Below, in pieces: positions 25,209 through 41,855 of a stretch of DNA of 64,000 bases; the stretch's first letter is position 1; each line of letters begins with the position of its first letter. The notes under the pieces are model-generated. The model did not search any database and was not told the DNA's origin. It saw only the letters and a list, made by a program, of their open reading frames with translations. A program made the translations under genes and the position numbers. The DNA comes from an uncultured Verrucomicrobiae bacterium (lineage in GTDB: Bacteria > Verrucomicrobiota > Verrucomicrobiia > Limisphaerales > Palsa-1400): assembly GCA_963702845.1 (NCBI GenBank), contig OY969763.1, positions 3,840,001 to 3,904,000 of the forward strand, written 5' to 3'.

Positions 25209-26576
25209 CTAGTTTAGGGCGACGCCGCGGCGGATGTAGGTGGGCATGTCCAAATCTTCGCCGCCTCTGATCGTTGGCTCGCTTTTATCGAAGCGGCCTT
25301 TGCTCACAATCTCCAGCGGCAATTCTTTTTGTAGGCGTGAGATTTTTTTCCGGCTGCGCTTGCCTCCGGCGGCGAGGATTTGGTCGCGGGCTTCGGTCGT
25401 GAGTTCAGGGACGGGAGCAACGACGCGTGAGATTGGGCGTTCGGTTTTTGCTGGATCGAGAAATTGCGGGCGATCCAGGCCGAGTGGAGTTGCGCCGGTT
25501 TGGACGCGATCGCTGGTTAAGCCGGGTTCCGGTTTAAGGTCGAGTTTCGGGTTGCGGCTGGCGATAAGGGTGAGGCCGATTTTGTCGGTGTAGGTTTCGT
25601 TGATGCTTGCGCCGAATACCAAATTTGCTTTCTCACAATGACGGTTGATCTGGGTCATCAAACGTTGGACCTGGCCCATGGAAAGATCAGGGCCACCAAC
25701 GAGGCTGACGAGCACGGCGTCGGATTGGGCGAGGACTTCGCCGGCATCCAGGAGCGGGTGCGCGAGAAGTTTTTCGATGACCTGATCGACGCGGCTGTCG
25801 CCAATGCCTTCGACGATTGCAAAGGCACTTTCGGCGTGGCGCGCACGGGTAACGCTGCAAAGGTCGGCGAAATCGACGGGCTTGAGCGCGCTATCGGTGA
25901 GCAGTCGCCAGACACCGCGGACGGCATCGGCGAGCATTTCGTTGCTGGTGTTGAACAGCTCAACGAAGCTCGTATTTTCGTCGAGAATTTTGAAAAGTTT
26001 TTGATTCGGCAGGCAGATGACGGCGTCGGCTGCGGCTGTAAGCGATTGCAGACCGGCTTGAGCCTGTGCCTGACGGCGCATGCCTTCGAAATCGAACGGC
26101 GTGGTGACGATGGCGAGGACGAGTGCGCCGTTTTCTTTAGCGGCCTGGGCAAGGACAGAAGCTGCGCCGGTGCCAGTCCCGCCGCCAAGTCCGCACAGGA
26201 TGAAGACGAGGTCAGCGTCAGTGCAAAGCGACCTGAGATTTTGCAGATCGTCTTGAGCGACGGCACGGCCGAGATCGGGATCGCCACCCGTCCCCATACC
26301 GCGAGTACGACGAGTGCCTAAAGTGATTTTGTTTTGAACGGTCGATTTGTCGAGCGCCTGGGAATCCGTGTTCAGGGCGTAGAAGGTGCCGTTGAAATTG
26401 GAACGCGCGAGGTGGTCGGCAGCGTTGCAGCCGGCGCCGCCGATGCCGAAAATTTTGGCGGTCAAGACACGCGGGCCGGGTGCGGGTGCGGGAGCTGCGG
26501 GAGCCGGTGCGCTTGGCGTTTGATCGAACGACGTTGTCGATTCGGGTGCCGTGATTTCGGGAGATTGGTCGATCAT
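25209..26576 (-). CDS. ftsZ: Cell division protein FtsZ
   Basis: GIGGAGCNA, NTDSQAL, GGGTGTG signature, DFAD, C-terminal EDLDMPTYIR. Confidence 0.95.
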   Translation of the reverse strand: MIDQSPEITAPESTTSFDQTPSAPAPAAPAPAPGPRVLTAKIFGIGGAGCNAADHLARSNFNGTFYALNTDSQALDKSTVQNKITLGTRRTRGMGTGGDPDLGRAVAQDDLQNLRSLCTDADLVFILCGLGGGTGTGAASVLAQAAKENGALVLAIVTTPFDFEGMRRQAQAQAGLQSLTAAADAVICLPNQKLFKILDENTSFVELFNTSNEMLADAVRGVWRLLTDSALKPVDFADLCSVTRARHAESAFAIVEGIGDSRVDQVIEKLLAHPLLDAGEVLAQSDAVLVSLVGGPDLSMGQVQRLMTQINRHCEKANLVFGASINETYTDKIGLTLIASRNPKLDLKPEPGLTSDRVQTGATPLGLDRPQFLDPAKTERPISRVVAPVPELTTEARDQILAAGGKRSRKKISRLQKELPLEIVSKGRFDKSEPTIRGGEDLDMPTYIRRGVALN

Positions 26577-26591
26577 AGTGTGGTCTCCTCT

Positions 26592-27812
26592 TTATTTACG
26601 GAAAATTTCGTCCCAGGCGGTTTTTATGCCGTCGACGACGCCGCCGGGTTTGCGTTTGCGTTTTTGTTGGAACGAACCGAAACGGACCAAACCAATGGCC
26701 GTGGCGAATTCGGGCTGATCGAGAGCTGACTTGAGACCGCTGATTGAATTGCTGCTGCCGCGCGAAACCGGCATATCGAAAACGCTCTCAGCAAGGGTCT
26801 GAATGTGCGAAATGCGCGCACCGCCGCCAGCGAGAAAGACGCCGGCACGAACGTAATTTAGCAGGCCAAGTTCGGAAAGTTCTTGTTCGATGAGTTCAAA
26901 AATTTCTTCGAGGCGCAAGGACATGATGCGGCGCAGGTGCTCGACGTTGATCGTCTTGGAAGGCAGGCCGAGTTCGTTCGGCAGCGAAATTTTTTGGCCT
27001 CTGTCGGCGTCGCACAGAACCGCGGCGCCATGTTCGATTTTGAGTTGCTCAGCGCGACCGAGCGGAAGTTTGAGGCCGTAAGCGAGGTCATTGCTGACGT
27101 GGTCGCCGCCGACGGCGAGGACGCCGGTGTGCTTGATGACGCCATCGCAATAGACAACGTATTCGGTCGTGCCCGCGCCAATGTCGATGACGAGCGCGCC
27201 GAGTTCTTTTTGTTCGGTAGTCAGAAGCGCCAGTGACGAAGCGAGACCGGTGAAGACGATTTCGTCGACGTCGAGCTGGAGGCTTTTGACGGCGCGGATC
27301 GGATTTTTCAAACGATTAACATGGCCGTGGACGACGTGGACATCAACTTCGACGCGTGCGCCGAACATGCCAACTGGATTGGTGATGCCGGTTTGGCCGT
27401 CGATTTGGAACAATTGGCGGACGGCATGGATGACGCTATGGTCGGCGGGAAGGTTGATGGCCTTGGCATTCTTGATGACGTCCTGGACATCTTCTTCAGT
27501 GATTTCGCGATCGGCGCTGACGACGGGATGAACGCCGTGATTGTTAAAGCCGCGAATGTGATTGCCGGTGACGCCGAGGAAAACGCTACGGATTTCGACG
27601 TTGGCCATTTGCTCTGCTTCAACGATGGCGTTGCGAATGTCTTCTTCGGCTTTGACGGGGTCGCAGATTTCGCCTTTGCGCACGCCGTTGGAACGGGCCT
27701 GGCCAATACCGATGATGTTGAGCGCGCCGGCGGAATTGATTTCACCGACGACGGCGCAAATTTTCGAGGTGCCGATTTCCAGGCCAACTATGACGTTAGA
27801 TGGTTCAAACAT
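26592..27812 (-). CDS. ftsA: Cell division protein FtsA
   Basis: GLEIGTSKI, IDIGAGTT, GGDHVSNDLA, FATAIGL; ATG 27812 overlaps the ftsQ stop. Confidence 0.95.
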   Translation of the reverse strand: MFEPSNVIVGLEIGTSKICAVVGEINSAGALNIIGIGQARSNGVRKGEICDPVKAEEDIRNAIVEAEQMANVEIRSVFLGVTGNHIRGFNNHGVHPVVSADREITEEDVQDVIKNAKAINLPADHSVIHAVRQLFQIDGQTGITNPVGMFGARVEVDVHVVHGHVNRLKNPIRAVKSLQLDVDEIVFTGLASSLALLTTEQKELGALVIDIGAGTTEYVVYCDGVIKHTGVLAVGGDHVSNDLAYGLKLPLGRAEQLKIEHGAAVLCDADRGQKISLPNELGLPSKTINVEHLRRIMSLRLEEIFELIEQELSELGLLNYVRAGVFLAGGGARISHIQTLAESVFDMPVSRGSSNSISGLKSALDQPEFATAIGLVRFGSFQQKRKRKPGGVVDGIKTAWDEIFRK

Positions 27813-28761
27813 GTTTTTTCCTGGCTCGGGTGGACTTGATGGTTTTGGGCGCAAGCGGCTGCACAGAGTTTGCAGCCACGGCACGCACCGGCAAATTGTT
27901 GGCGATGGAGAGGTCGATCGAAGCGATGGCCTTGCCCCACTTTTGGTATTGGTCGCAAATGAGACGCCAGCGACGGAATTGGGTTTCGAAGCGGTCGACG
28001 GAAAAGGTGATTTCGGCGTTTTGACTGGTGGTGACCTGCAGGATTTCCGGGCTGGTGATGTTGACGCGTTGGAGTTCAACGAGGCCGACCATCGGTGAGC
28101 GTTCGAATTCGGCGAGCAGTTTCAGGCCGGCGCGCCCCTGGACGTTATCGATTTGGTGGCCGGGTTGGAGTTCGCTGGCGGTCAGGCCGACGATGATGGG
28201 CAGGCGCTCAGGGCCAGCGAGAGGGACGGCGCGCCAACGCGGGTCGATCGGTTGGACGACGTAGCCTTCGGAATCGAGATAGTAGGTGACCTCGAGGAAT
28301 GAGCCGTTAGCGCCGGGTTGCGTGACGACGGTTTGGGCGACAGGTTCGCGTTCGCTCACGCGGATTTTTAAGGTGCGTGGCAGGACGCGCTCGACGGCGA
28401 CGAATTGAATCGGCGGAAGAATTTCGAGGTCGCGCTTTACCTTTAGAATGTCGAGGGCAAGGAGGTTTTGGCCGGCACGAACTTTGGCCCAGTAACGGAT
28501 GACATTCGTCGAGAGGACGCCGTCGGTTTGGACTTCGACCTGTTGAATGGCAAAGGCTTCGTTTTTGTAAATGAGTTTGTCGAGCAGCCACGAACCGCCC
28601 CGCCAGACGACGAGCGCGGCGAGCGTGAGCGAAAAAGCGACAGCGATGCCGACGCCCAGCAAACGTATGCGGTGCGCGCGCGTTTGACTGGTACGCAGCT
28701 TAACGTCGAGCAGCTCCGCGCGCTCAACCATTCGCCGATTTCGTCGTTTTTTGCCGAACAT
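27805..28761 (-). CDS. ftsQ: Cell division protein FtsQ/DivIB
   Basis: Single TM, POTRA segment (VERVLPRTLKIRVSEREP), position between ddl and ftsA. Confidence 0.85.
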   Translation of the reverse strand: MFGKKRRNRRMVERAELLDVKLRTSQTRAHRIRLLGVGIAVAFSLTLAALVVWRGGSWLLDKLIYKNEAFAIQQVEVQTDGVLSTNVIRYWAKVRAGQNLLALDILKVKRDLEILPPIQFVAVERVLPRTLKIRVSEREPVAQTVVTQPGANGSFLEVTYYLDSEGYVVQPIDPRWRAVPLAGPERLPIIVGLTASELQPGHQIDNVQGRAGLKLLAEFERSPMVGLVELQRVNITSPEILQVTTSQNAEITFSVDRFETQFRRWRLICDQYQKWGKAIASIDLSIANNLPVRAVAANSVQPLAPKTIKSTRARKKHV

Positions 28762-29720
28762 TATTTTTTACGTTTCATGGCCAGTTCGACCATGCGCTGG
28801 CAGACTTGCGGGTAATTCATGCCCGCAGCGGCTGCGATTTCTGGAAAAAGACTAACTTCGGTCATGCCGGGCAGTGTGTTCACTTCGAGCACGATGGGGT
28901 TGCCTTGCGCGGTGACCATGACATCGACACGCGAGTAGTCCCGAGCGCCGACGGCTTTGAACGCAGCGAGCGCGGCAGCCTGGATTTTTTTGGTTGTTTC
29001 GGCATCGAAGTCCGCAGGACAAAAATGATCGCTTGCGCCGGGAGTGTATTTATTTTTGTAATCGTTGGGCCCTTGTTTGACGCGGACTTCGGCGACGGGC
29101 AACGCTTCATCGCCAAGGATGCCGACAGTAGTTTCGCGGCCGATGATTTTTTCTTCCATCAACACCTGGGTGTCGTAACGGAAGGCCTCGGCGAGCTTGG
29201 TGGCGAATTCTTCAACCCGATCGACCATCTGCAGACCGACGCTGGAACCTTGACGAACCGGCTTGAGGACGACGGGCGGATTCCAGCCGCGCGGCCAGGT
29301 GGTTTTTGGTGAATCGAACACTTCGAAGCGAGCGGTCGGCACGCCATGGGCGACGCAGGCTTTTTTGGTCAGCACTTTATCGAAGGCGATGCGACTGGCT
29401 TCAGCATCGCAACCGGTATAGGCGATGCCGATTTTTTCCAATTCGGTTTGGACGGTGCCATCTTCACCGTAGGTGCCGTGAAGCGCGAGGAAAACGACAT
29501 CGGTGCCGGGAAGGAGGGACCAACCGGGTACGGATTTTGCGCTGCGTTTGGATTTGGAAGCGGGCGCGGGAGATTCGACTTTCGCGCCGGGATCGACTTC
29601 GTAAACGTCGTGCCCGAGCGAGCGCAATGCTTTCGCGACGGCTGCGCCTGAACGCAATGACACTTCGCGTTCGGCTGAAGGACCGCCCAACATCACTGCA
29701 ATTTTTAAAGGCTTAATCAT
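28761..29720 (-). CDS. ddl: D-alanine--D-alanine ligase
   Basis: GGPSAEREVSL, LHGTYGEDG, GSSVG, LEVNTLPGMT. Confidence 0.95.
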   Translation of the reverse strand: MIKPLKIAVMLGGPSAEREVSLRSGAAVAKALRSLGHDVYEVDPGAKVESPAPASKSKRSAKSVPGWSLLPGTDVVFLALHGTYGEDGTVQTELEKIGIAYTGCDAEASRIAFDKVLTKKACVAHGVPTARFEVFDSPKTTWPRGWNPPVVLKPVRQGSSVGLQMVDRVEEFATKLAEAFRYDTQVLMEEKIIGRETTVGILGDEALPVAEVRVKQGPNDYKNKYTPGASDHFCPADFDAETTKKIQAAALAAFKAVGARDYSRVDVMVTAQGNPIVLEVNTLPGMTEVSLFPEIAAAAGMNYPQVCQRMVELAMKRKK

Positions 29721-29723
29721 TAT

Positions 29724-30656
29724 TTATTCCGGATCTTCGCCCAAAATTTCTACTTCAGTTTCGAGTTCGATGCTGTGCTCGGCTTTCACTTTTTCGCGGA
29801 TGAACTCAATCAGTTGCAATACGTCGGCAGCGGTGGCGTTTTTTTCGTTCACGATAAAATTGCCGTGAACGGGTGAAATCATCGCGCCGCCAACCCGCTT
29901 GCCTTTCAAACCGAGTTCCTGGATCAGCTTGCCGGCAGCAGTTTTTTCCGGGTTTTTGAAAATACAACCGGCGCTGGGGTTTCTGGGCTGCGAACACCAG
30001 CGACGTTCGTTAAAATTATTTGTCCGCGCGACGATGGCTTCTTTGCTATCAGGGTCGCCACGAAAAATCGCGCTCAACGCAATGTGCGTGCGGAGCATCG
30101 GGCAGGAGCGGTATACGACTTCGATTTGGTTGACGAAGACGTCGTGAACCTCCCCTTCCCTATCCATGTAGCTGATTTGTTCGATACGTTCGAAAGTCGC
30201 GCTGCCCATAGCTCCGGCGTTCATGCGCATCGCGCCTCCAACACTGCCGGGGATACCGCCGAGAAATTCGAGGCCGGCGAGACCGTTTTGGCGAGCGGTA
30301 TTACAAACTTCCTTGAGACTGGCGCCTGCGCCGCACTTCAGGTACGGGCCGGAGACTTTGATTTCCGAAAAAGCTTGGTGCCAGAGGCGGACGACAACGC
30401 CGCGAATCCCGCCGTCGCGGATCAGGAGATTTGAACCGCGACCGAGGACGGTGAGCGGGATGTCGGCTTGCGTGCAGAAACGGAACAGGCGCGCGAGATC
30501 AAATACGCTGCACGGTTCGACATAGACGTCCGCAGGGCCGCCGACACGAAGAGTAGTTTTTTTCGCGAGCGATTCGTTCAGCCGGAGAACGGATTCCGGT
30601 GCGAGCACGTGCTTCAGATCGGCAAAAATTTGCTCCTTGTTCATCACATCAAGCAT
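29724..30656 (-). CDS. murB: UDP-N-acetylmuramate dehydrogenase
   Basis: TTLRVGGPAD, LGRGSNLL, IPGSVGGAMRMNAGA, SAGCIFKNP, HGNFIVN. Confidence 0.95.
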   Translation of the reverse strand: MLDVMNKEQIFADLKHVLAPESVLRLNESLAKKTTLRVGGPADVYVEPCSVFDLARLFRFCTQADIPLTVLGRGSNLLIRDGGIRGVVVRLWHQAFSEIKVSGPYLKCGAGASLKEVCNTARQNGLAGLEFLGGIPGSVGGAMRMNAGAMGSATFERIEQISYMDREGEVHDVFVNQIEVVYRSCPMLRTHIALSAIFRGDPDSKEAIVARTNNFNERRWCSQPRNPSAGCIFKNPEKTAAGKLIQELGLKGKRVGGAMISPVHGNFIVNEKNATAADVLQLIEFIREKVKAEHSIELETEVEILGEDPE

Positions 30657-31842
30657 GCAGCGCCTCCGCGGGTTTCGAGGTCGCCGGTTGCGGCGGCTGC
30701 ACTGTGCGAATCTCGCCGGTTTGCGGTGGCAAATCAATGTGGGTCGGGCGACCCAAAATTCTGTCAGCAATTTCGGCGGCGGAAGTCGGACGGTCCCAAC
30801 GCTCGAGCGCTTGTTGCATGCTGGCGCGGCGTTGGGGATTGTTGATGATCTCGATGAGTTCGGCTGCGAGCGTGTGCGGCTCGACACTCGATTGCTCAAA
30901 CATGCGCGCGGCGCCGGATTGGACAAAGGCGCGCGCATTGTGAAATTGGTGATTGTCGGCGGCAGTCGGATACGGAATAAGGACTGCCGGCAAACGAGTC
31001 GCGGCAAATTCAGCGAGCGAGGATGCGCCGGCACGGCTGATGGCGACATCCGACGCGGTCAGCGCGAGGTCCATTTCGTTGAGAAACTCGCGGACAACGG
31101 CGCGGCAGTTTTGCGCAGCGTAAGCTTTTTGGACGATGTCGAAATCTTGTTTGCCGGTGAGGTGCAGGATTTGAAGATTGGGAATCGCTTCACGAAGCAA
31201 CGGCGCGCAGTTGAGTGCGAGGTCGTTGATGCCGGTCGCGCCCTGGCTCCCGCCCATAATTAACAAAACGGGATCTTGTTCTTCCAAACCAAGCAGGCGA
31301 CGGGCGACGGCTGCACGCATTGGTTTGGAAAATTGGGCACGGACAGGCATACCAAGCGCTTCGATTTTCTTCGCGCGCATTGTCGTGCTCGGGAAATAGA
31401 CGAAGGCGAGATCAACAAGGCGCGCGAGCCAGCGATTGGCGCGGCCGGCGATGCTGTTGGATTCGTGCAAATAGGTTTTGGCTTCGAGCAGTTTTCCGGC
31501 GAGGACGGGAGCGACACTGGTGAAACCGCCCATCGCAACGACAACATCCGGACGGTTTTTGCGAAAGTGACGCAGCGCGAGCGCGACAGACTTGGTGAGT
31601 CCGAGGCCAAAGCCGAGGTAATTTTTTCCGCTCAAACCGACGGCCGGAAGGCTGATGATTTGGAATTTACCGGCAACGGATGCAACGGCTTGTTGGTCCA
31701 CTTCTTTTTGCGACACGATCAGGGTCACTTCGCACTCGCGACGGGCGAGTTCGTGTGCAATGGCGATGCCGGGGAACAAATGGCCACCCGTGCCGCCACA
31801 GGCGATCGCAATTTTTTTAGGTGTAGCAAATTCGTTACGCAT
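30649..31842 (-). CDS. murG: Lipid I GlcNAc transferase MurG
   Basis: GGTGGHLFPG, HESN, GGSQGA, SRAGAS. Confidence 0.95.
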   Translation of the reverse strand: MRNEFATPKKIAIACGGTGGHLFPGIAIAHELARRECEVTLIVSQKEVDQQAVASVAGKFQIISLPAVGLSGKNYLGFGLGLTKSVALALRHFRKNRPDVVVAMGGFTSVAPVLAGKLLEAKTYLHESNSIAGRANRWLARLVDLAFVYFPSTTMRAKKIEALGMPVRAQFSKPMRAAVARRLLGLEEQDPVLLIMGGSQGATGINDLALNCAPLLREAIPNLQILHLTGKQDFDIVQKAYAAQNCRAVVREFLNEMDLALTASDVAISRAGASSLAEFAATRLPAVLIPYPTAADNHQFHNARAFVQSGAARMFEQSSVEPHTLAAELIEIINNPQRRASMQQALERWDRPTSAAEIADRILGRPTHIDLPPQTGEIRTVQPPQPATSKPAEALHA

Positions 31843-32981
31843 CGCTTAACTCCGCAGTGGGTATTTCGAACGGGTTATGGCGCTTGCGCACCGGCTCAAC
31901 AGCAAATCGTGAAATGCTCAGCAACAGTCCGGTCGCGACGAGCATCAGCATAAGATTGGAACCTCCGTAACTGATGAACGGCAGCGGCATACCTTTATTC
32001 GGCAGTGTGCTGGTGACAACGCCGATGTTGATGAACGCCTGGAAACCAATCATGAAAGTGATGCCGAGCCCAAGCAGCACGCCGAAGGTGTCGCAAGAGC
32101 GCTTGGCGATAATGGTGCCGCAAACAATGATCGCGATGAAAAGGATCACGACGGCAAGTGTCGCGATGATTCCAAGCTCTTCGCCGATAATGGAGAAAAT
32201 GAAGTCGGTGTGATGTTCGGGGACGAAGCCGAGTTTTTGGCGTCCGTTGCCGAGGCCGAGTCCAAACCAGCCACCAGAACCAAGTGCCAGCATCGCTTCG
32301 TAGGCCTGATAACCGACGCCTTCTTTGTTTTCTTCGGGATGCAGCCACGCGAGGATGCGCCGCAACCGCATCGGGTCGTGCACAAGCGAAAAAGCCAAAG
32401 CGAGGCCGGCGGCGATCACCGGCGGGATGATAAATTTCCAACGAACTCCGGCGATCACCAGCATTGCGGCGCTAACCAGTGCGAGGAGAATGGTACAACC
32501 GCGGTCGGGTTCGATGAATATCAACGCAAGAACCATGGCGATGATGCAACTCGGAATGACGAGACCTTGCTTAAACGTGTGCATCTGGCGCTGGAAGCGG
32601 TCGCAATAGGCGGCGAGAAACAAGAACCAGCGAGAGCTTGGCCAATTCCGAAGGTTGAAAACGTGGGACTCCAGGGATTGCAACCCAGCGTCGCGCGCCT
32701 TTTGTTCCAAAGCCGTATGGTGAAAAAACCACCAGAAGCAAAAACCCGGCGAAAATTAAGAGATACGGAGAAATTGTTTTCAGACGGCGATAATCCATGC
32801 AGGCGATCGCGGCCGCGAGCGCAAGACCCACTGCACACCAGGTGAGTTGGGAAATCAGATACTTTGCGCCGACGGCGGTCTTGCGAATTTCCATGCTCAT
32901 GCTGCAGCTATAAAGCATGACGAGACCAAGGCCGGTCAAAGCCAGGACGCAGCAAATTAGAATGGTCGTCAACCACTTCAT
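31835..32981 (-). CDS. ftsW: SEDS peptidoglycan glycosyltransferase FtsW, 1-nt frameshift near 32625
   Basis: GARRW...FQPSELAK in one frame; PEHHTDFIFSIIGEELG and PFISYGGS in the other. Confidence 0.92.
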
Positions 32982-33149
32982 CAAAAAGGCAAACCTCCTA
33001 ATGCGCTCACGCGCTTAAACGAACAGGCGGCACGCGTGCCGCCCGAGTCAAACCCGACGCGTTGCTGTCGGGTTTCTACACTGCAGGTGCTTAAACTTTT
33101 ACAAACGGGCTCGGATTTCATCCAAACGCATCGCGCTTGGTTGTGAAGA

Positions 33150-33183
33150 GCGGGCGCCAGGGTGAGGACACCTGACGCCCGCC
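33150..33183 (-). terminator. Hairpin just downstream of the LysM gene
   Basis: GCGGGCG(C)CAGG...CCTG(A)CGCCCGC; a second hairpin AAACCCGAC...GTCGGGTTT lies at about 33050-33075. Confidence 0.5.
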
Positions 33184-33195
33184 CATTAAACGAAT

Positions 33196-34035
33196 TTAAT
33201 TATTCGCGGTGCCGGTCGTCACTTGCGCCGTTGTTGTTGGCGTAGCGGAAGCGGCAGGTACCGGAGCGCTCACCGGCGTCGCGTCGGTTGACGCTTTGCC
33301 TGCGGGCATCTTCAGTTTTTGTCCGACCTTCAGCGAGTTGATGGACTTCAACCCGTTCAAAGAAGCGAGCTGCTTCACGGTCGTCCCGTGTGACTTCGCG
33401 ATCTTTTCCAAGCGGTCGCCGCTCTTGACGGTATAGGTGGCACCGTCGGTCGAGGCCGTGTCAGCCGATGCAGGAGTTGCGCTGGTCGCAGCAACTGCGG
33501 ACGTAGAACCGACCGGGATCTGGACCTTCTGACCGATCTGCAAACGCAGCGCGTTCAGGCCGGGGTTCGCGTCTTGCAATGCTTTGAGCGATACGCCGTT
33601 TTTCTTGGCGATCGAGCCGAGCATGTCGCCTTTTTGAATCGCGTATTCGCGAGTTGCGCCGGTTGCAGCAACTGGAGTTGCAGAAGTGATCGGAGCAGCA
33701 GGAATTGCGGTCACCGGAGCACCAGTCGGAGCGGGTACTGCGGTCGGGCTAATCGCAACGGTCGGAGCCTGCGGAATTGCCGCGTTCGGATCCATCGGCG
33801 CGGGATTCGCAGCGAGGTTGTCGGTCGTCGGCATCGAAGCATCAGCGTTTGTCTTCACGCCGTTGGTTCCGCTGTTGTCGGTCGGGGCCGAGTTATCCTT
33901 GGTGCAACCCTGGATGAGCAAACCACCGATGAAAACCACGTGCACGATGAGAATCGTGAAGAAGGCTATTCGGATGGTAGATTTATTTTTCGAAGGCTTG
34001 GTGCCTTGGGGTACGAGTGGGCTTGGAGTGTTCAT
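33196..34035 (-). CDS. Membrane-anchored protein with two LysM domains
   Basis: TM helix, Pro/Ala/Thr linker, [15 protein letters not shown] and [14 protein letters not shown]. Confidence 0.92.
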
Positions 34036-34294
34036 TTTGGTCCTGTCTGGTTTATGTCATTCGTTGAGGTGTTCTTGTTGTTTCTTTTGTATCTGGTCTT
34101 CCCTCACAAAGACCGGATACAAAAATGTTTGGGGTCAAAACCCAGTCATTTTTCTGCAATTTTCCTGCAAAAATCGTCAATTTATTCACAATTTCGCCTT
34201 ATGGCATCCTTCAGGCCGTCTTATCAGAGCCTGCATCTTGTGGGGTTTTTAGGCCCCAGCACTATTCGTTGCGTCCGCCAACGTTCTACCGGTT

Positions 34295-34426
34295 TTAAGC
34301 AACAAAACGGCCTTGAATGATTCTTTTTGAATTTTTCAAGGCTTGAACAAAGCGCTGAACGTCCGTTTCTGTGTTCGCTTGTAACAATTTGTCCAAGTTG
34401 CTGCAACTGTTATTTGGTTGATTCAT
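34295..34426 (-). pseudogene. 43-aa stub in the murD position, possible murD relic
   Basis: MNQPNNSCSNLDKLLQANTETDVQRFVQALKNSKRIIQGRFVA starts 10 nt after the mraY stop; weak resemblance to the MurD C-terminal SPACxSxD...F...V segment. Confidence 0.3.
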
Positions 34427-34435
34427 GTTTTTTTC

Positions 34436-35587
34436 TCACCGGATTTTCAACGTGCTCAGAGCCACCACGGCGCACAAAACGCACATGATGTAAAAGCGGG
34501 TCGTAACCTGTGATTCGTACCAACCTTTTTTCTCAAAGTGATGGTGCAACGGCGCCATCAGAAAAACGCGGCGGCCTTCGCCATATTTGCGTCGGGTGTA
34601 TTTGAAATAGAAACGTTGAATCATGACGGAACCGGCTTCGGCAACAAAGACGCCGCCCGCGATGATCATGATGAGCGGTTGGTGAATGAGGACGGCGATC
34701 ATGCCGAGCGCGCCGCCGAGCGCGAGTGAACCGGTGTCGCCCATGAACACTTTTGCCGGATGACAATTGAACCAAAGGAACCCAAGACCCGCTCCGATCA
34801 TGCCGGCGGCGAAAACGGTCAGTTCGCCGGCGCCGGGCACGTATGGGATTTGAAGGTATTGCGCAGTGCGGAAATTTCCAGCGAGATAGCTCAGGACCAG
34901 AAAAACAAACGAGACAATCACAACACAACCCGTGGCAAGACCGTCGAGGCCGTCGGTCAAATTCACGGCATTTGAGGTGCCGACAATGGTAAGTGCGGTG
35001 AGGATTACGCCCACGGTTGCGCCGATGGAACCCGTCAACACTGGATATTTTACAAATGGCACCATGACTTCGCTGACCATTTTGCTGGTCGCGGGAAGCT
35101 TCCATAGATAGAGGCCGACGAAAATCGCGAGGATCCCCTGGACCCACAGCTTGATGAACTCAGTGATGCCACCGGCATTTTGTTTGGTGATTTTCGCGTA
35201 GTCGTCGAGGAAGCCGAGGCCGCAAAGCACGATGAAGGTGAGCGACATCAATTGCACGAGCGTGTTGTATTGGGTCCACAACATCGCGGTAAGATCGACG
35301 ACGAGAACGATCAAAATTCCACCCATCGTTGGTGTGCCACGTTTATCGACGCGATTGGTCAACGCGCCCTGCTCTTCTGCGCGATCGCGGTATTCCTGGC
35401 CGAACTTCAATTCTTTGAGCCAGCGAATCATTCGCGGACCAAGAATCCAACTCAGCACGAGCGCAGTAACGGCGGCGCCGGCACTACGGAATGTGATGTA
35501 GCGAAAGACGCGCAACGGCGAGACATAGGCTTGCCATTGGCCGTCTTTGGCCCACATCAGAATTTTCTCGGCGAGGTAGTAAAGCAT
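34436..35587 (-). CDS. mraY: Phospho-N-acetylmuramoyl-pentapeptide transferase
   Basis: KRGTPTMGG, NAVNLTDGLDGL, VFMGDTGS, MAPLHHHFE. Confidence 0.97.
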   Translation of the reverse strand: MLYYLAEKILMWAKDGQWQAYVSPLRVFRYITFRSAGAAVTALVLSWILGPRMIRWLKELKFGQEYRDRAEEQGALTNRVDKRGTPTMGGILIVLVVDLTAMLWTQYNTLVQLMSLTFIVLCGLGFLDDYAKITKQNAGGITEFIKLWVQGILAIFVGLYLWKLPATSKMVSEVMVPFVKYPVLTGSIGATVGVILTALTIVGTSNAVNLTDGLDGLATGCVVIVSFVFLVLSYLAGNFRTAQYLQIPYVPGAGELTVFAAGMIGAGLGFLWFNCHPAKVFMGDTGSLALGGALGMIAVLIHQPLIMIIAGGVFVAEAGSVMIQRFYFKYTRRKYGEGRRVFLMAPLHHHFEKKGWYESQVTTRFYIMCVLCAVVALSTLKIR

Positions 35588-36973
35588 TTAGTTCCTGATA
35601 AGTTGCTCGACGATTCGCTCCATCTTCATCGCACGCGAGGCCTTCACCAAAACGAGGTCGCCGTCGCGAACAAACTCTTTGATTTGGGTCGCAGCATCTT
35701 CGACATCGGTAAATTCGGTAACGTTCTTCAGGCCTTTTTTGCGCGCGGCTTCAGCGATGCCGCTGGCGAGGCGGCCAACTGCAAAAAGTTGATCAATTTT
35801 CAGTGAGGCAGCTTTTTCGCCGACTTCTGAATGTGCAGCAGCGGCTTCGTTGCCGAGTTCAGCCATGTCACCAAGCACCGCGACGCGACGAGCGCGCGTA
35901 GGCATTTCGCGCAATGTTTCCAGGGCAGCGAGCATGGAGTCGGCATTGGCGTTGTAAGCGTCATCAAGGACGCCGATGCCTTTGGCCGACCAGAATTGCA
36001 TGCGCATTTTGGGCGGAGCACATTCGCTGACGCCACGCGCGATTTCGGCGTGGCCAAGTCCGAGCTCGTCGCCGACCGCGATAGCGAAGAGGGCGTTCAC
36101 CACTTGATGGCGTCCGAGAAGTTTTAAGCGGTATTCGCCATCGACTTTGCCGGCTCGAGACTTAACCAAAAAGGAAACGCCATGTTCCGAAAGCTTGATA
36201 TCACTCGCGCTGTAATCGTTTTTTCCATTGAGGCCGACTTTAATCACGCGAGCGCGAGTGCGACGCGCGATGGCTTCACTCCACACGTTGTCTCCATTGA
36301 GAAACACCGCTCCACCAGCAGGAACTGCTTCTGCAACCGCCCCTTCCTCGCGGGCAACGCCATCGAGGTCGCCGAAAAATTCGAGATGTTCGCGCCCGAT
36401 GTTGGTTACGACTGCGTAGCGTGGAGCGACCATGAACGCGAGCGGCGCGAGTTCGCCAGGATGATTCGTGCCGATTTCAAGCACGGCAGCTTGATGAGTT
36501 TTTTCAAGCTTCAACAGGGTGAGCGGCACACCGATATCATTGTTGAAACTGGCTTCGCTCCAGAGTGTCGGATTTTCCTGACGCAGCACTGAAGCGATCA
36601 ATTCTTTCGTCGTCGTTTTGCCGTTGGAGCCGGCGACCGCGATGATTGGCAAATCGAAATTGCGACGATAATGCGAGGCTAGCCGGCCGAGCGCTTTGCG
36701 GGTGTCGTCGACTTCGATTGCCGGGAACGGCGCGCGCGGAGCGACGCGCCCTACCTTGTGCTTTTCGACAACGACAGCAGCGACGCCGGTTTCGAGAACA
36801 TGCGGCAAGAATTCGTGCGCGTCGAAATTCTCGCCCGAGAGTGCAAAGAACAAATCTCCAGCCTGTGCCTTGCGCGAATCTGTGCAGATGCGCGAGACGG
36901 TCGTGTCCGGCGTCGCCACCCTGAGTTCGCCCTGGCACGCTTCAGCGACATACTGGAGTGTTCGTGTTTCCAT
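35588..36973 (-). CDS. murF: UDP-MurNAc-tripeptide--D-Ala-D-Ala ligase
   Basis: TDSR, GENFDAH, GSNGKTTTKE, FNNDIGVPLT, DDAYNAN, LGDMAELG, VKASR. Confidence 0.95.
   Translation of the reverse strand: METRTLQYVAEACQGELRVATPDTTVSRICTDSRKAQAGDLFFALSGENFDAHEFLPHVLETGVAAVVVEKHKVGRVAPRAPFPAIEVDDTRKALGRLASHYRRNFDLPIIAVAGSNGKTTTKELIASVLRQENPTLWSEASFNNDIGVPLTLLKLEKTHQAAVLEIGTNHPGELAPLAFMVAPRYAVVTNIGREHLEFFGDLDGVAREEGAVAEAVPAGGAVFLNGDNVWSEAIARRTRARVIKVGLNGKNDYSASDIKLSEHGVSFLVKSRAGKVDGEYRLKLLGRHQVVNALFAIAVGDELGLGHAEIARGVSECAPPKMRMQFWSAKGIGVLDDAYNANADSMLAALETLREMPTRARRVAVLGDMAELGNEAAAAHSEVGEKAASLKIDQLFAVGRLASGIAEAARKKGLKNVTEFTDVEDAATQIKEFVRDGDLVLVKASRAMKMERIVEQLIRN
36728..36755 (-). repeat. GTAG-type REP-like palindrome inside the murF coding sequence
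   Basis: GGTAGGGCGCGTCGCTCCGCGCGCGCCG, read in frame as VGRVAPRAP. Confidence 0.6.
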
Positions 36974-37209
36974 TAATCGTGCAGCGGACTGTTTGATTTG
37001 AAACGGCAACGCGGTCCGCGCAGGGCGCGATTCAGCGCGAAGCGACGGCCTTCCATGTGTTCGGGAACGGCATTCGATTCGAGTTCGGCGATGGCTTGTT
37101 CGACCGGTTCTTTTGAAAATGCTTTCGGAAATGCCGGTCCGCCTTGTGTGGCGAGCCCAAAATTATTGCCGGCCTGCTGCTGATCCGTTTCGAATTTTTT
37201 CATTTTCAT
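36973..37209 (-). pseudogene. 78-aa stub in the murE position, possible murE relic
   Basis: Starts 12 nt after the ftsI stop; stop overlaps the murF start (TAATG); EQAIAELESNAVPEHME resembles the Mur-ligase VPGRME hinge. Confidence 0.4.
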
Positions 37210-37220
37210 AGGTTCAGGTG

Positions 37221-39077
37221 TTATCTGGCTTGCAGTCCCTTTTTGGTGTTCGACGCCTCGACCAGGCGTGGTTGATTATCCATTAAAGGTTCAACTTCGA
37301 TGTCAGGCTTGAGATTCAAATAGTTTGCGGCGCGATCGGCGATTTCTTTGAAAAATGGCGCGGCAGTCTGGCCGCCGAAATGGCCGTTCTTCGGATCGTC
37401 GATCACGACGGAAATGCAAATTTCCGGATTATCCGCCGGGAAAAATCCGATGAATGAGGAGAAAAATTTCTGCACGTAGTGGCCGTGCTCAACTTTTTGT
37501 GCGGTGCCAGTTTTCCCGGCGACGGTGAAGTTTTCCATGTGCGCCTTTTCGGCGGTGCCACCTTTGATCGGCACGGTCTTAAGCGCGGTGATCATGTCTT
37601 TATCGGCGCGGTCGCCGGCGACCGTGCGGACAGGTTGTGGCTGATATTTCGCGACGATCTTTCCATCGGAATTTTCAAGGCGATCAACGAGCATCGGGCG
37701 CATTAACACTCCGTGATTGGCGATCGCGCACATGGCCATGACCATTTGCAACGGCGTGACAGCGATGCCCTGGCCCATCGGAATTTGGGCGATTGAGACC
37801 TTCGTCCACTTCTGCACCGGATGCACGATGCCGGAGACTTCACCGGGCAGCGGAATGCCCGTCTTACTGCCGAAACCGAAATCGGTGATGTAGTGGTAGA
37901 GGCGTTCTTCGCCGAGACGAATACCGATTTTGGCCGAGCCAATATTAGAAGACTTAGTGATGATGTTCATCACGCTCAGGTCACCGTAAGGTTCGTGGTC
38001 ATGCAACGTGCGGCCGGCGTAAGCGAAGTGTCCATGCTCGCAGTTGAACACGTCCGTGAGGCGAACGACTTGTTCGTTCAAACCAGCGCTGATAACGACG
38101 ATCTTGAACGTAGACCCCGGTTCAGCGATATCGCTGATAACGCGATTGCGCAGGGCGTCCATCGGAAATGCGCCGGGACGATTTGGATCGAAGTTCGGGA
38201 TCGTGGCCATCGCGAGAATTTCACCCGTACGAGGCCGAACGATGGTGCACGACGCGCTTACCGGCGTGTGCTTTTTTACGATCTCGACCAACTCAGTTTC
38301 GGCGATGTGCTGGAGGCCGGCATCGATTGTCAGCACGACATTTAAGCCGTCGCGTGGATTAACGGCTTCTTCGCGGAACACGACCAACTCACGTTGGCGC
38401 TTATCGATTTCTGTGCGCAGCCAACCACGAACACCGGTGAGTTTGGAGTTGAAAGCAAGTTCGATTCCGTTCTGGCCGGATTGGAGATCGTCGTTTGCAA
38501 CATAACCAAGAATGTGCGACGCCAAACGGCCATTGGGGTATACGCGAATTTCGTCATCTTCGGCGAACACGGCCTTGGCGCGAAGATTGGTATAGAAACG
38601 CTTGTCGACGGCTTTGAGCTTGGATTCGTCGACGCCAAAAGAGAGCGTCGACATTGTTTTGTTGATTGCTTCCCACGTATCGAGCGTGACTTTGCGTTTT
38701 AAAACGATGTAGCCATTGGTCTTTCCGTCTTGGCGGAGGTGCGGAGCCAATCGCTCAAAGACAAAATCCACGTTTGTTTGCAGCAAGGGTGCGATGGCGC
38801 GAGCGACTTCGGCGCGGCGATCGCCGACCAAACTTGGATCAGCGCAAATGATTTTCGCCGGGATGCTCGTGGCAAGTGGATTGCCACGAATGTCGAGAAT
38901 TGCGCCGCGCATCGGCGGGCGCGAAATCGTGCGATGGGTGTTGTGCTCCGCGCGGGTCTGAAGGTCGTGATGACGGAGAACCTGGAGATCGACCAGACGG
39001 TATCCAAGCGCCGTAAATGCCACCACCAGGAGCCCGGTTACGAGCCCGATTTTCAAATCTGTCGCCGCGAACTTCAT
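37221..39077 (-). CDS. ftsI: Class B penicillin-binding protein (PBP3/FtsI)
   Basis: RGAILDIRG, EPGSTFK (SxxK), SSN, KTGT motifs. Confidence 0.93.
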   Translation of the reverse strand: MKFAATDLKIGLVTGLLVVAFTALGYRLVDLQVLRHHDLQTRAEHNTHRTISRPPMRGAILDIRGNPLATSIPAKIICADPSLVGDRRAEVARAIAPLLQTNVDFVFERLAPHLRQDGKTNGYIVLKRKVTLDTWEAINKTMSTLSFGVDESKLKAVDKRFYTNLRAKAVFAEDDEIRVYPNGRLASHILGYVANDDLQSGQNGIELAFNSKLTGVRGWLRTEIDKRQRELVVFREEAVNPRDGLNVVLTIDAGLQHIAETELVEIVKKHTPVSASCTIVRPRTGEILAMATIPNFDPNRPGAFPMDALRNRVISDIAEPGSTFKIVVISAGLNEQVVRLTDVFNCEHGHFAYAGRTLHDHEPYGDLSVMNIITKSSNIGSAKIGIRLGEERLYHYITDFGFGSKTGIPLPGEVSGIVHPVQKWTKVSIAQIPMGQGIAVTPLQMVMAMCAIANHGVLMRPMLVDRLENSDGKIVAKYQPQPVRTVAGDRADKDMITALKTVPIKGGTAEKAHMENFTVAGKTGTAQKVEHGHYVQKFFSSFIGFFPADNPEICISVVIDDPKNGHFGGQTAAPFFKEIADRAANYLNLKPDIEVEPLMDNQPRLVEASNTKKGLQAR

Positions 39078-39089
39078 CTTCCACTCCTC

Positions 39090-39208
39090 TGGAGCCGCGC
39101 ATTGCGCTCCGGCGCCCATCGTCGCGATGGGTTGAGGCTTGCGCCTCGTCTGGAGTTTCGGCTGCAGGCGGCCCGGCACACGTCGTGCCGCCTAAAGGCG
39201 GGACTCCA
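39090..39208. repeat. Cluster of REP-like palindromes between ftsL and ftsI
   Basis: TGGAGTTTCGGCTGCAGGCGG (39151) pairs with CCGCCTAAAGGCGGGACTCCA (39188); additional GGAGC...GCTCC and CCCATCG...CGATGGG hairpins. Confidence 0.65.
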
Positions 39209-40880: not shown

Positions 40881-41855
40881 TCAGACACGCGCGATTAATT
40901 CCGGCGTAGGTTCCGTTTGCGGAGCATCCGCAGCGGAATTAATCGCGCTGTCCGTCTTCTTTGTGATTCCACGGCGGCTCGTCGCTGTCGTGGTTATCGC
41001 TTTTTCGGCCGTCGCTGTTTGTAGTTTCCCTGTCCCCACCTTAGCTTCGGCCGAGACCACCTCCAGGTCGGCGTCTAAAAGTTCATTGCGAATCGGGCGC
41101 ACGTTATCTAAAGCGAATTCGCCTTGGACCGCGGGTTGTGCGGCATTGCGTTTGCGTCCAAAAATAGCTTCGCGCAGCTTGGAAGGAACAGATTGGTTCA
41201 CTTCCGACTTGGCAGCCGAATGCAGGACGGGCGTTGCCGGCTTTACCACAACCGGGGCGCTCGCCTTCCTTTCAGTCATTCGCTTTTCGTAAGCGTCGGC
41301 AATTGGATTTGCTTCCGGTTTACCAGGGCAAGTGGCGCCAAAATTGGCCCGTTGTTGCAAATGCTGCGGAGCATCAGTAGCTGGCGCAGATGACTGAACA
41401 GAAACCGCCTCCGAAGAATGCGGCATTTCTCGGCGGAACGTGTTCGTCAGCTTCTCCAATACGGTCGGCTGGACTCTTTTGCCAAGCTCCTGATTGTCCG
41501 TAAAGACTTCGGCGGTTGGCTCACCGGCTTGCACAGTCGCGACGTGTCTCACCGCGTCCTGTTCGGGCAACCGCCGAAAAACCTGATAGCTTTTCTTTTC
41601 CGCAGAGCCACCAAAGGGCTGCGGCTCCTCCGGTTTCAACAACACACGTTTGGCCGCAGCTGCAAACTTCTTCAGCCACGAGGACACCGGATCCAAAACC
41701 GCTGAAGAAACCGAACTTGTCTGCGAAGTAACTGCCGGAGCGCCGGGCTTGCCGAAATTCGGCAACATCCCCGTCGTCTCCAGGTTGTAACCGGCCTGTC
41801 GGCGTTTCATACCGTTGAGCGCGTTACTAAATGATAGCAATTTTGGGAATTGCAT
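40881..41855 (-). CDS. Low-complexity hypothetical protein between mraZ and rsmH
   Basis: 324-aa ORF starting 4 nt after the mraZ stop; Ala/Pro/Thr/Lys-rich with an ordered-looking motif VQGEFALDNVRPIRNELLDADLEVV. Confidence 0.7.
   Translation of the reverse strand: MQFPKLLSFSNALNGMKRRQAGYNLETTGMLPNFGKPGAPAVTSQTSSVSSAVLDPVSSWLKKFAAAAKRVLLKPEEPQPFGGSAEKKSYQVFRRLPEQDAVRHVATVQAGEPTAEVFTDNQELGKRVQPTVLEKLTNTFRREMPHSSEAVSVQSSAPATDAPQHLQQRANFGATCPGKPEANPIADAYEKRMTERKASAPVVVKPATPVLHSAAKSEVNQSVPSKLREAIFGRKRNAAQPAVQGEFALDNVRPIRNELLDADLEVVSAEAKVGTGKLQTATAEKAITTTATSRRGITKKTDSAINSAADAPQTEPTPELIARV

Follow-up and report, generated by a model that had tools for sequence, protein, structure and literature searches.

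The window analysed here, a stretch of 64,000 nucleotides from an uncultured Verrucomicrobiae bacterium of the order Limisphaerales (contig OY969763.1, positions 3,840,001 to 3,904,000), contains a division and cell wall (dcw) gene cluster that lacks murC, murD and murE, the genes of the tripeptide module. The three encoded ligases are regarded as indispensable to walled bacteria and as antibiotic targets. The genome is a single contig of 6,027,559 bases with a completeness rating of 89.8%; the nearest relatives of its MurF carry the titles Limisphaerales or Verrucomicrobia subdivision 3, and there is no isolate among the named rows of the best 120 MurF homologs. On the minus strand the cluster runs ftsI, a 78-codon open reading frame (ORF), murF, mraY, a 400-bp gap, lysM, ftsW, murG, murB, ddl, ftsQ, ftsA and ftsZ (Table 1). 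In full-set relatives, by which we mean genomes with murC, murD and murE all in place, the order is ftsI-murE-murF-mraY-murD-lysM-ftsW-murG-murC(-murB)-ddl, and so exactly three genes are missing here. A first-pass annotation of the window had given the order from ftsI to ddl, with the short ORF as a stub and the gap included, and had named murF as the only Mur ligase. ORF calls and family profiles bear out the order, no murC, murD or murE was found in the window, and the places it took as canonical for the three genes are those seen in the clusters of the full-set relatives.

The three genes are also absent from the rest of the genome. The domains PF08245 and PF02875 each match at three places, which correspond to MurF, Mpl and FolC, and all three of these Mur-fold genes are of normal length. 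A tblastn search of the genome with the MurC, MurD and MurE proteins of relatives gave cross-matches to MurF and Mpl only, at 28% identity or less, and order-specific profiles (built from 7 MurC, 27 MurD and 14 MurE sequences and run on 118,601 six-frame peptides) added only one weak N-terminal match with an E value of 0.006. The first-pass annotation had allowed for relocation of the module and for a fused ligase; with only three Mur-fold genes, all of normal length and none further in the six frames, both ideas are refuted.

An assembly deletion at the three slots, which had also been proposed for checking, does not account for the absence either. In contigs from public sequencing runs, at about 90% identity, the murG-murB junction is spanned by one contig of 3250 nt, the mraY-lysM gap by one contig and the ftsI-murF gap by contigs of three runs of one sample. 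Only MurF-, Mpl- and FolC-grade matches and empty slots are likewise seen in three other families, in genomes of 1, 2 and 7 contigs. The assembly does contain indel errors: the extra ftsW base near 32621 is missing from contigs of three of four public runs (two studies), and gatB (genome 662.0-663.6 kb), alr (2.932 Mb) and a pabC-like gene (3.060 Mb) are split as well. Therefore, the split in ftsW is probably an assembly indel. These errors and the completeness rating are what could be cited for relocation or an assembly gap, an explanation that we consider extremely improbable given a single contig, six-frame searches without a match, three slots bridged by independent contigs, the like state in the three other families and the 41 of 80 clusters described below. 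Thus, the absence of murC, murD and murE is a real loss without relocation.

Table 1. Features of the cell wall cluster, in window coordinates
Feature	Position	Strand	Basis
ftsI, septal transpeptidase	37221-39179	-	penicillin-binding protein (PBP) family matches; 57% to one relative's FtsI; dN/dS 0.07 versus closest relative
empty murE slot with 78-codon ORF (36973-37209), probably not a gene	36973-37220	-	family and MurE comparisons; contigs span the slot
murF, sole Mur ligase remaining in the cluster	35588-36973	-	TIGR01143 424.7 bits, cut-off 288.6
mraY	34436-35587	-	TIGR00445 325.8 bits; dN/dS 0.05
empty murD slot, DNA fossil of murD 3' end as judged by alignment	34036-34435	-	DNA alignment with relatives' murD
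sigma70-like promoter site TTGCAG-17-TACAAG, predicted promoter of lysM-ftsW-murG-murB	34378-34406	-	pattern count versus shuffles
conserved RNA hairpin/pseudoknot in lysM leader	34064-34125	-	covariation over 38 sequences
lysM, double-LysM protein	33196-34035	-	LysM-family matches; relatives share position
ftsW, split near 32621 by probable assembly indel	31835-32984	-	two TIGR02614 halves
murG	30649-31842	-	TIGR01133 272.5 bits, cut-off 250.25
murB, stand-alone	29724-30656	-	TIGR00179
ddl, D-Ala-D-Ala ligase	28761-29720	-	TIGR01205 295.8 bits
ftsQ, ftsA, ftsZ	25209-28761	-	ORF calls, comparison with relatives

The losses are not confined to this genome. We surveyed 221 genomes of the order that are at least 90% complete, using a PF08245 match with an E value of 1e-46 or better as a threshold proxy for MurE. 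MurE-grade matches were present in 94 genomes and MurC in 80; 77 had both, 17 MurE only, three MurC only, and 124 neither, the last being called loss genomes. The three MurC-only cases are one frameshifted murE and two contig ends. Ten of the 17 MurE-only cases were read, and the murC slot is visibly empty in nine of them, the murC of the remaining one being cut by a contig end. In a biased sample of 80 clusters fetched by their likeness to this MurF, 73 of the 78 with a visible murE slot and 64 of the 67 with a visible murC slot have that slot empty, and 41 clusters have all three empty. We also built a midpoint-rooted FastTree phylogeny from eight cluster proteins, covering 97 of 100 loci after omission of three that had fewer than three genes. 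One large clade in it (support 0.94) is without murC and murE at every locus whose slots can be seen, and beyond this clade there are at least four more losses, which makes at least five separate losses. The genomes of the order are related to one another and so the loss counts carry no p-value. Wherever a genome was checked, a true absence of murD or murE went together with an absence of murC, and all of the checked partial states are without murC. The losses are therefore lineage-wide, stepwise and repeated across the order, which indicates that they are selective rather than private; the first-pass annotation had suspected selection from this one cluster.

The partial states display some patterns of their own. 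The GN motif of MurD, which is conserved in solved structures and which we take to bind UDP-MurNAc-L-Ala (MurNAc being N-acetylmuramic acid), is kept in 11 of 11 murC-positive cases, in five of seven that are murC-less with an intact MurE, and in one of 16 without an intact MurE (one locus was fetched twice and counted once). Orphan MurD proteins evolve at a higher rate when scaled to MurF and MraY (median ratio 1.32 vs 0.99), and twelve loci hold nothing of MurD except a C-terminal scrap. Three loci without MurC and MurE (L073, L087 and L091) have an orphan MurD that has lost the GN motif, keeps the ATP and D-glutamate (D-Glu) motifs and has a ratio of nonsynonymous to synonymous substitution rates (dN/dS) of about 0.05; it may possibly have a new function. 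In families f32 and f46 (L173-L177, L190-L196) murC is gone, and MurD and MurE are motif-intact in the five clusters read; G070, a genome of this murC-less type with intact MurD and MurE, also keeps the glutamate racemase gene murI. The predicted peptide-binding motifs of the f32 Mpl are changed to EPRxQS and LDH in seven of seven proteins and to TNG in six of seven. From these observations, Mpl likely stands in for MurC in f32 and f46, which would explain why murC is lost first. Finally, murE is retained alone in G229 and G069, which would fit the finishing of a salvaged dipeptide.

The empty slots differ in what they hold. The murC slot is seamless, as the murG stop overlaps the murB ATG at 30656 with a GGAGG upstream. 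In relatives, murC precedes murB or is fused to it, for example as the MurC-MurB fusion of 811 amino acids in G032; we also observed one full murCDE cluster, L007 (G037), in which murB does not adjoin murC. In the murE slot, the 78-codon ORF has no family match and no MurE similarity (E value 0.14), and in L046, the closest relative (73% identity), its frame is broken by a stop codon. We therefore rejected it as a MurE remnant or replacement, and by these comparisons it is probably not a gene. A gene of about 750 nt that occurs between ftsI and murF in some relatives was also rejected as a MurE replacement because it is present in one full-set genome as well. Two other observations concern this slot. 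Loci L048, L056, L073 and L088, from both loss and full-set genomes, have a gene of about 240-260 codons between ftsI or murE and murF; its product carries a membrane anchor at the N-terminus and presumably resembles SIMPL/DUF541 proteins. At 15 sister-lineage loci (including L072, L078, L079, L082, L085, L090, L114 and L120-L123), a short ORF in the empty murE slot has a conserved start like MNSLPxISHHLFVAA. Elsewhere in the window, between mraZ and rsmH, lies a 324-codon ORF without an obvious family (window 40881-41855, minus strand).

The 400-bp gap in the murD slot aligns at the DNA level with the 3' coding end of the relatives' murD; at the protein level no trace of murD was found in it (murD profile E value 0.29). 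Judged by this alignment, the gap is a fossil of the murD 3' end. A sigma70-like site that falls within murD coding DNA in relatives persists in it. The pattern, which was derived from these same lysM upstream sequences and is absent from the list of a generic promoter scanner, occurs in 46 of 87 lysM upstream regions, where shuffles would give 0.05, and in none of 87 murG upstream controls. The position of this site inside the murD 3' end is likely why the C-terminal scrap of murD survives. The lysM gene, a constant member of the cluster in the order, also has in its leader a 15-bp hairpin whose loop, GAGG, can form a pseudoknot with a CCUC downstream, and this is found at about 67 of 83 relatives' loci. 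Among 38 leader sequences, which were selected for having the hairpin and the GAGG/CCUC motif, 89.8% of cells are paired, 14 of 20 pairs have changed on both sides, and none of 500 shuffles reaches the observed pairing values. The hairpin also has a z score of -2.58. Covariation is strong in the stem and amounts to one pair in the helix of the pseudoknot. No Rfam family matches at this place. We consider the hairpin a candidate, and likely, regulatory leader of the lysM-ftsW-murG-murB unit.

The rest of the wall machinery is kept. The murA gene is present here (544 bits) and in 38 of the 41 genomes of a panel that consists of 35 murC-less and six full-set genomes. This genome also has murB, ddl, dapF and alr (split in this assembly), as well as mreB, rodA, pbp2 and ftsZ for the Rod system and division, and an ORF with the MurJ motif, the last by pattern match only. 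Sequence patterns for a class A PBP, MltG, DapL, LysA and Slt gave no match and are too crude to count. The dN/dS values of the measured cluster genes lie between 0.01 and 0.33 in nine close pairs from loss lineages, and these genes are under purifying selection. The pattern of wall-less or wall-reduced members of the Planctomycetes-Verrucomicrobia-Chlamydiae group, i.e., murA, murF, murG, ftsW and ftsZ lost or relaxed, is not seen, as all five are kept. Since a wall is still being made, UDP-MurNAc-tripeptide must arise by another way.

The enzyme best placed to supply it is Mpl, encoded at 660.6-662.1 kb of the genome. The protein scores 469.7 bits against TIGR01081 (cut-off 388.7) and 317.5 bits against the MurC model TIGR01082, which is below that model's cut-off of 335.1. 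Of the Mpl motifs named in PMC3060825, (S/T)AFFDKRSK and the C-domain RR, HH, EPR(S/T)NT and SNG, it retains all, as TAFFDKRSK, RR, HH, EPRxNT and SNG. According to the portion of that paper available to us, Psychrobacter Mpl favours the tripeptide (260 per min versus 0.7 for L-Ala), and overexpressed E. coli mpl complements an E. coli murC(ts) mutant (PMC3060825). Mpl is present in 213 of the 221 order genomes and so predates the losses. No alignment column separates the Mpl of 14 all-lost genomes from that of 11 full-set genomes, and the MurF of the loss lineages keeps 119 of the 131 columns that are invariant in full-set MurF; a changed specificity of Mpl or MurF in the all-lost genomes was accordingly rejected, as these column comparisons gave no signal. 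In the mpl neighbourhood of 21 genomes, nothing is conserved except gatB in six.

Searches for a supply of D-Glu and for another ligase gave mostly negative results. Among the profile searches that the first-pass annotation had proposed, the one for Mpl found the canonical protein described above, and the one for glutamate racemase found no murI in this genome. The gene occurs in 54 of the 97 order genomes with murC or murE and in only one of the 124 loss genomes. PF01177 matches in G017 and G022 were rejected as MurI because they are of another type, the G017 protein scoring as an amino-acid racemase. No D-amino-acid transaminase was found in this genome; the second class-IV aminotransferase, considered as a candidate, is PabC-like rather than Dat and follows pabB. 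The ATP-grasp candidates for a replacement ligase are only Ddl, PurK, pyruvate carboxylase and AccC, which are housekeeping enzymes. No spare stem-peptide ligase was found in searches that covered the Mur fold and ATP-grasp (other ligase folds were not searched). As a separate observation, loci like those of nonribosomal peptide synthetases, with adenylation domains, lie at 780-787 kb, 3.653-3.658 Mb and 5.160-5.164 Mb of the genome, and one of them adjoins a P450-like gene.

The explanation that we favour, and consider quite probable, is that the bacterium is an auxotroph for the peptide only. MurA and MurB would make its own UDP-MurNAc, stem tripeptide shed by other bacteria would be taken up from outside, and Mpl, the only enzyme in sight that gives this product, would ligate the ready-made tripeptide to UDP-MurNAc; MurF, Ddl, MraY, MurG and the later enzymes would then complete the wall. 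The peptide would have to come from outside because recycling of its own wall cannot support net growth. We infer this dependence because the Mpl motifs are intact, murI was lost together with the module, no spare ligase was found and salvage genes are present. The latter are nagZ adjoining an AmpG-like permease, anmK, three Amidase_2 matches, oppA/B/C and an ElsL-like YkuD protein. The permease scores 162.9 bits against TIGR00901, short of the cut-off of 350, this being its best and only family match. The ElsL-like protein is a stand-alone YkuD protein of 181 amino acids (PF03734 at residues 23-178), leaderless as judged by eye. ElsL is described as trimming tetrapeptide for Mpl, with orthologs in all Verrucomicrobia orders, in the text available from PMC8649774, and E. 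coli Opp with MppA as carrying sugar-free peptides only and scavenging from the medium in that from PMC10622912. Such a restriction would fit the retention of MurA and MurB. The first-pass annotation had listed Mpl-type ligation of scavenged tripeptide among its options, and it is this option that has gained the most support, from the canonical Mpl, the uptake and trimming genes and the co-loss of murI across the order.

Several observations weigh against this explanation. At 6-8 Mb, the genomes are not streamlined ones, to which the known cases of such dependence belong. Full-set genomes have Mpl no less often (78 of 80) than loss genomes do, so its retention is no sign that it became essential. 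Among the 97 genomes with murC or murE, 43 are also without murI, so that the order may obtain D-Glu in some other way, a candidate being a bifunctional DapF like that of Chlamydia; dapF is present in all 41 panel genomes. The salvage genes are themselves uneven. This genome has no LdcA, and its ElsL-like protein reaches 106.2 bits against NF040925, where the cut-off is 270, ElsL being its only NCBIfam match. Among the 35 murC-less panel genomes, an Opp binding protein is found in 32, an ElsL-like protein in 27 and an AmpG-like permease in 15, all of these permeases below the family cut-off; the six full-set genomes have no AmpG-like permease. By these queries G040, which is 96% complete, lacks Opp, AmpG-like and ElsL-like proteins, and G007 lacks both transporters. 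The sole binding protein here is nearer to OppA (317 bits) than to MppA (275 bits), and it does not have the MppA pair of Arg402 and Ala274, since a Gln occupies the place of Arg402, the residue reported as essential in the part of PMC3173086 we could consult. At the 274/276 position, where OppA has Glu276, the protein has an Arg, and it keeps Arg411 and Asp417. In OppA, Glu276 pairs with an arginine at the MppA Arg402 position. The Arg/Gln pair occurs in 17 of 20 aligned Opp binding proteins (19 of 20 fetched loci plus this genome's protein; L146:734-2356, L210-L229), in loss and full-set genomes alike, and the binding protein of the order may possibly have a swapped D-Glu site.

Some of the same observations would suit a de novo route in which free tripeptide or dipeptide is made without the UDP-MurNAc carrier and ligated by Mpl, leaving the cells self-sufficient. 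For example, the universal dapF of the panel indicates an intact supply of meso-diaminopimelate (DAP), D-Glu is evidently obtainable without murI in the 43 genomes just mentioned, some loss genomes show no transporter, the losses are widespread in large genomes, and the orphan-MurD clade with its D-Glu and ATP motifs is under strong selection. We nevertheless regard such a route as unlikely, because no candidate enzyme appeared among the Mur-fold or ATP-grasp matches, the slots of the lost genes hold no replacement, mpl has no conserved biosynthetic neighbours, and 123 of the 124 loss genomes have no murI.

A shift in the specificity of Mpl and MurF, by which they would make another and shorter stem de novo, with Mpl adding L-Ala like MurC and both enzymes carrying out further steps, is improbable. 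The complementation of murC(ts) by E. coli mpl, the absence of murC beside intact MurD and MurE in f32 and f46, and the altered peptide-binding motifs of the f32 Mpl speak for it. The Mpl of all-lost genomes has no distinguishing column and MurF is largely unchanged. Furthermore, cross-linking by PBPs needs a diamino acid in the stem, and a stem without one would not be cross-linkable by the retained PBPs. A decay of the wall pathway that would end in the loss of the wall, the condition of several Planctomycetia orders, is very improbable. The mur genes lost in Planctomycetia according to the available text of PMC12283558, the split ftsW and alr and the class A PBP motif not found by a pattern search might be taken as signs of decay, but the extra ftsW base is missing in other runs' contigs and the essential gatB is split too. 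Moreover, the low dN/dS values, the near-constant murA and the retained mreB, rodA, pbp2 and ftsZ all oppose decay, and the loss is limited to one module.

For the order as a whole, we think it rather probable that more than half of its members build a normal wall without MurC, MurD and MurE by a route that has not been described. This route would be either an obligate harvest of the neighbours' stem peptides by an Opp protein with a moved D-Glu-binding arginine or an enzyme system producing tripeptide that is not bound to UDP-MurNAc. The intermediates would record the switch: the f32 Mpl re-tuned as a MurC, a lone MurE finishing dipeptides, and MurD kept partly as a promoter host. Of the 221 genomes, 124 are without murC and murE matches and yet have the rest of the wall machinery. 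Dependence on neighbours would give a testable reason for the resistance of these bacteria to culture and would make stem peptide a common currency of communities; independence would mean a new route to the stem peptide. The partial states would also allow the shift in Mpl specificity to be studied on natural enzymes.

We found no report of murCDE loss in Limisphaerales or of peptide-only auxotrophy in the literature covered, from which subscription journals and bioRxiv supplements were outside the scope. The nearest known cluster is the canonical dcw cluster of Verrucomicrobium spinosum with its MurC-MurB fusion, and the gene order and lysM position of the full-set relatives match it (PMC4803751, PMC12283558). 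As far as the available text of these papers goes, V. spinosum cannot do without murC, murD and murE (PMC4803751, PMC12283558), these three genes are called highly conserved in Verrucomicrobiota (PMC12283558), and a missing MurC domain is noted in Opitutae only (PMC4803751). Unlike the V. spinosum cluster, the one described here has lost all three genes.

The predicted salvage resembles wall recycling in E. coli and Acinetobacter, which uses AmpG or MppA-Opp, NagZ, AmpD/AmiD, LdcA or ElsL, and Mpl; here we find Mpl, NagZ, AnmK, Amidase_2 proteins, Opp and a leaderless YkuD protein. The two differ in that LdcA is absent here, the permease and carboxypeptidase are below their cut-offs and the binding protein is without the MppA Arg402. 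In addition, recycling supplements MurCDE in E. coli and Acinetobacter, whereas here it is the only visible route. In Tannerella forsythia, a MurNAc auxotroph according to the text seen of PMC5790795, one precursor module is likewise lost and supplied from outside. However, Tannerella is a mirror image, because it needs the sugar, whereas the organism described here makes the sugar and is without the peptide ligases.

The closest parallel is Fidelibacter multiformis IA91 (Fidelibacterota, Marine Group A), for which the consulted part of PMC11652737 reports that a wall is built from exogenous muropeptides, as shown in culture, and that the strain, with a genome of 2.79 Mb, is unable to synthesise MurNAc, D-Ala, D-Glu, DAP or Lys. 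As in Fidelibacter, de novo precursor synthesis has been lost lineage-wide and recycling genes have been kept, with a dependence on neighbours that is in our case predicted from genes. Unlike Fidelibacter, the bacterium described here belongs to another phylum, has a genome of 6.0 Mb and comes from an order with repeated stepwise losses; it keeps murA, murB, alr, ddl and dapF, so that only the tripeptide module is gone. In conclusion, the proposed system would work like Fidelibacter-type salvage and yet falls outside that type, as the inability to make MurNAc, D-Ala and DAP is not shared.

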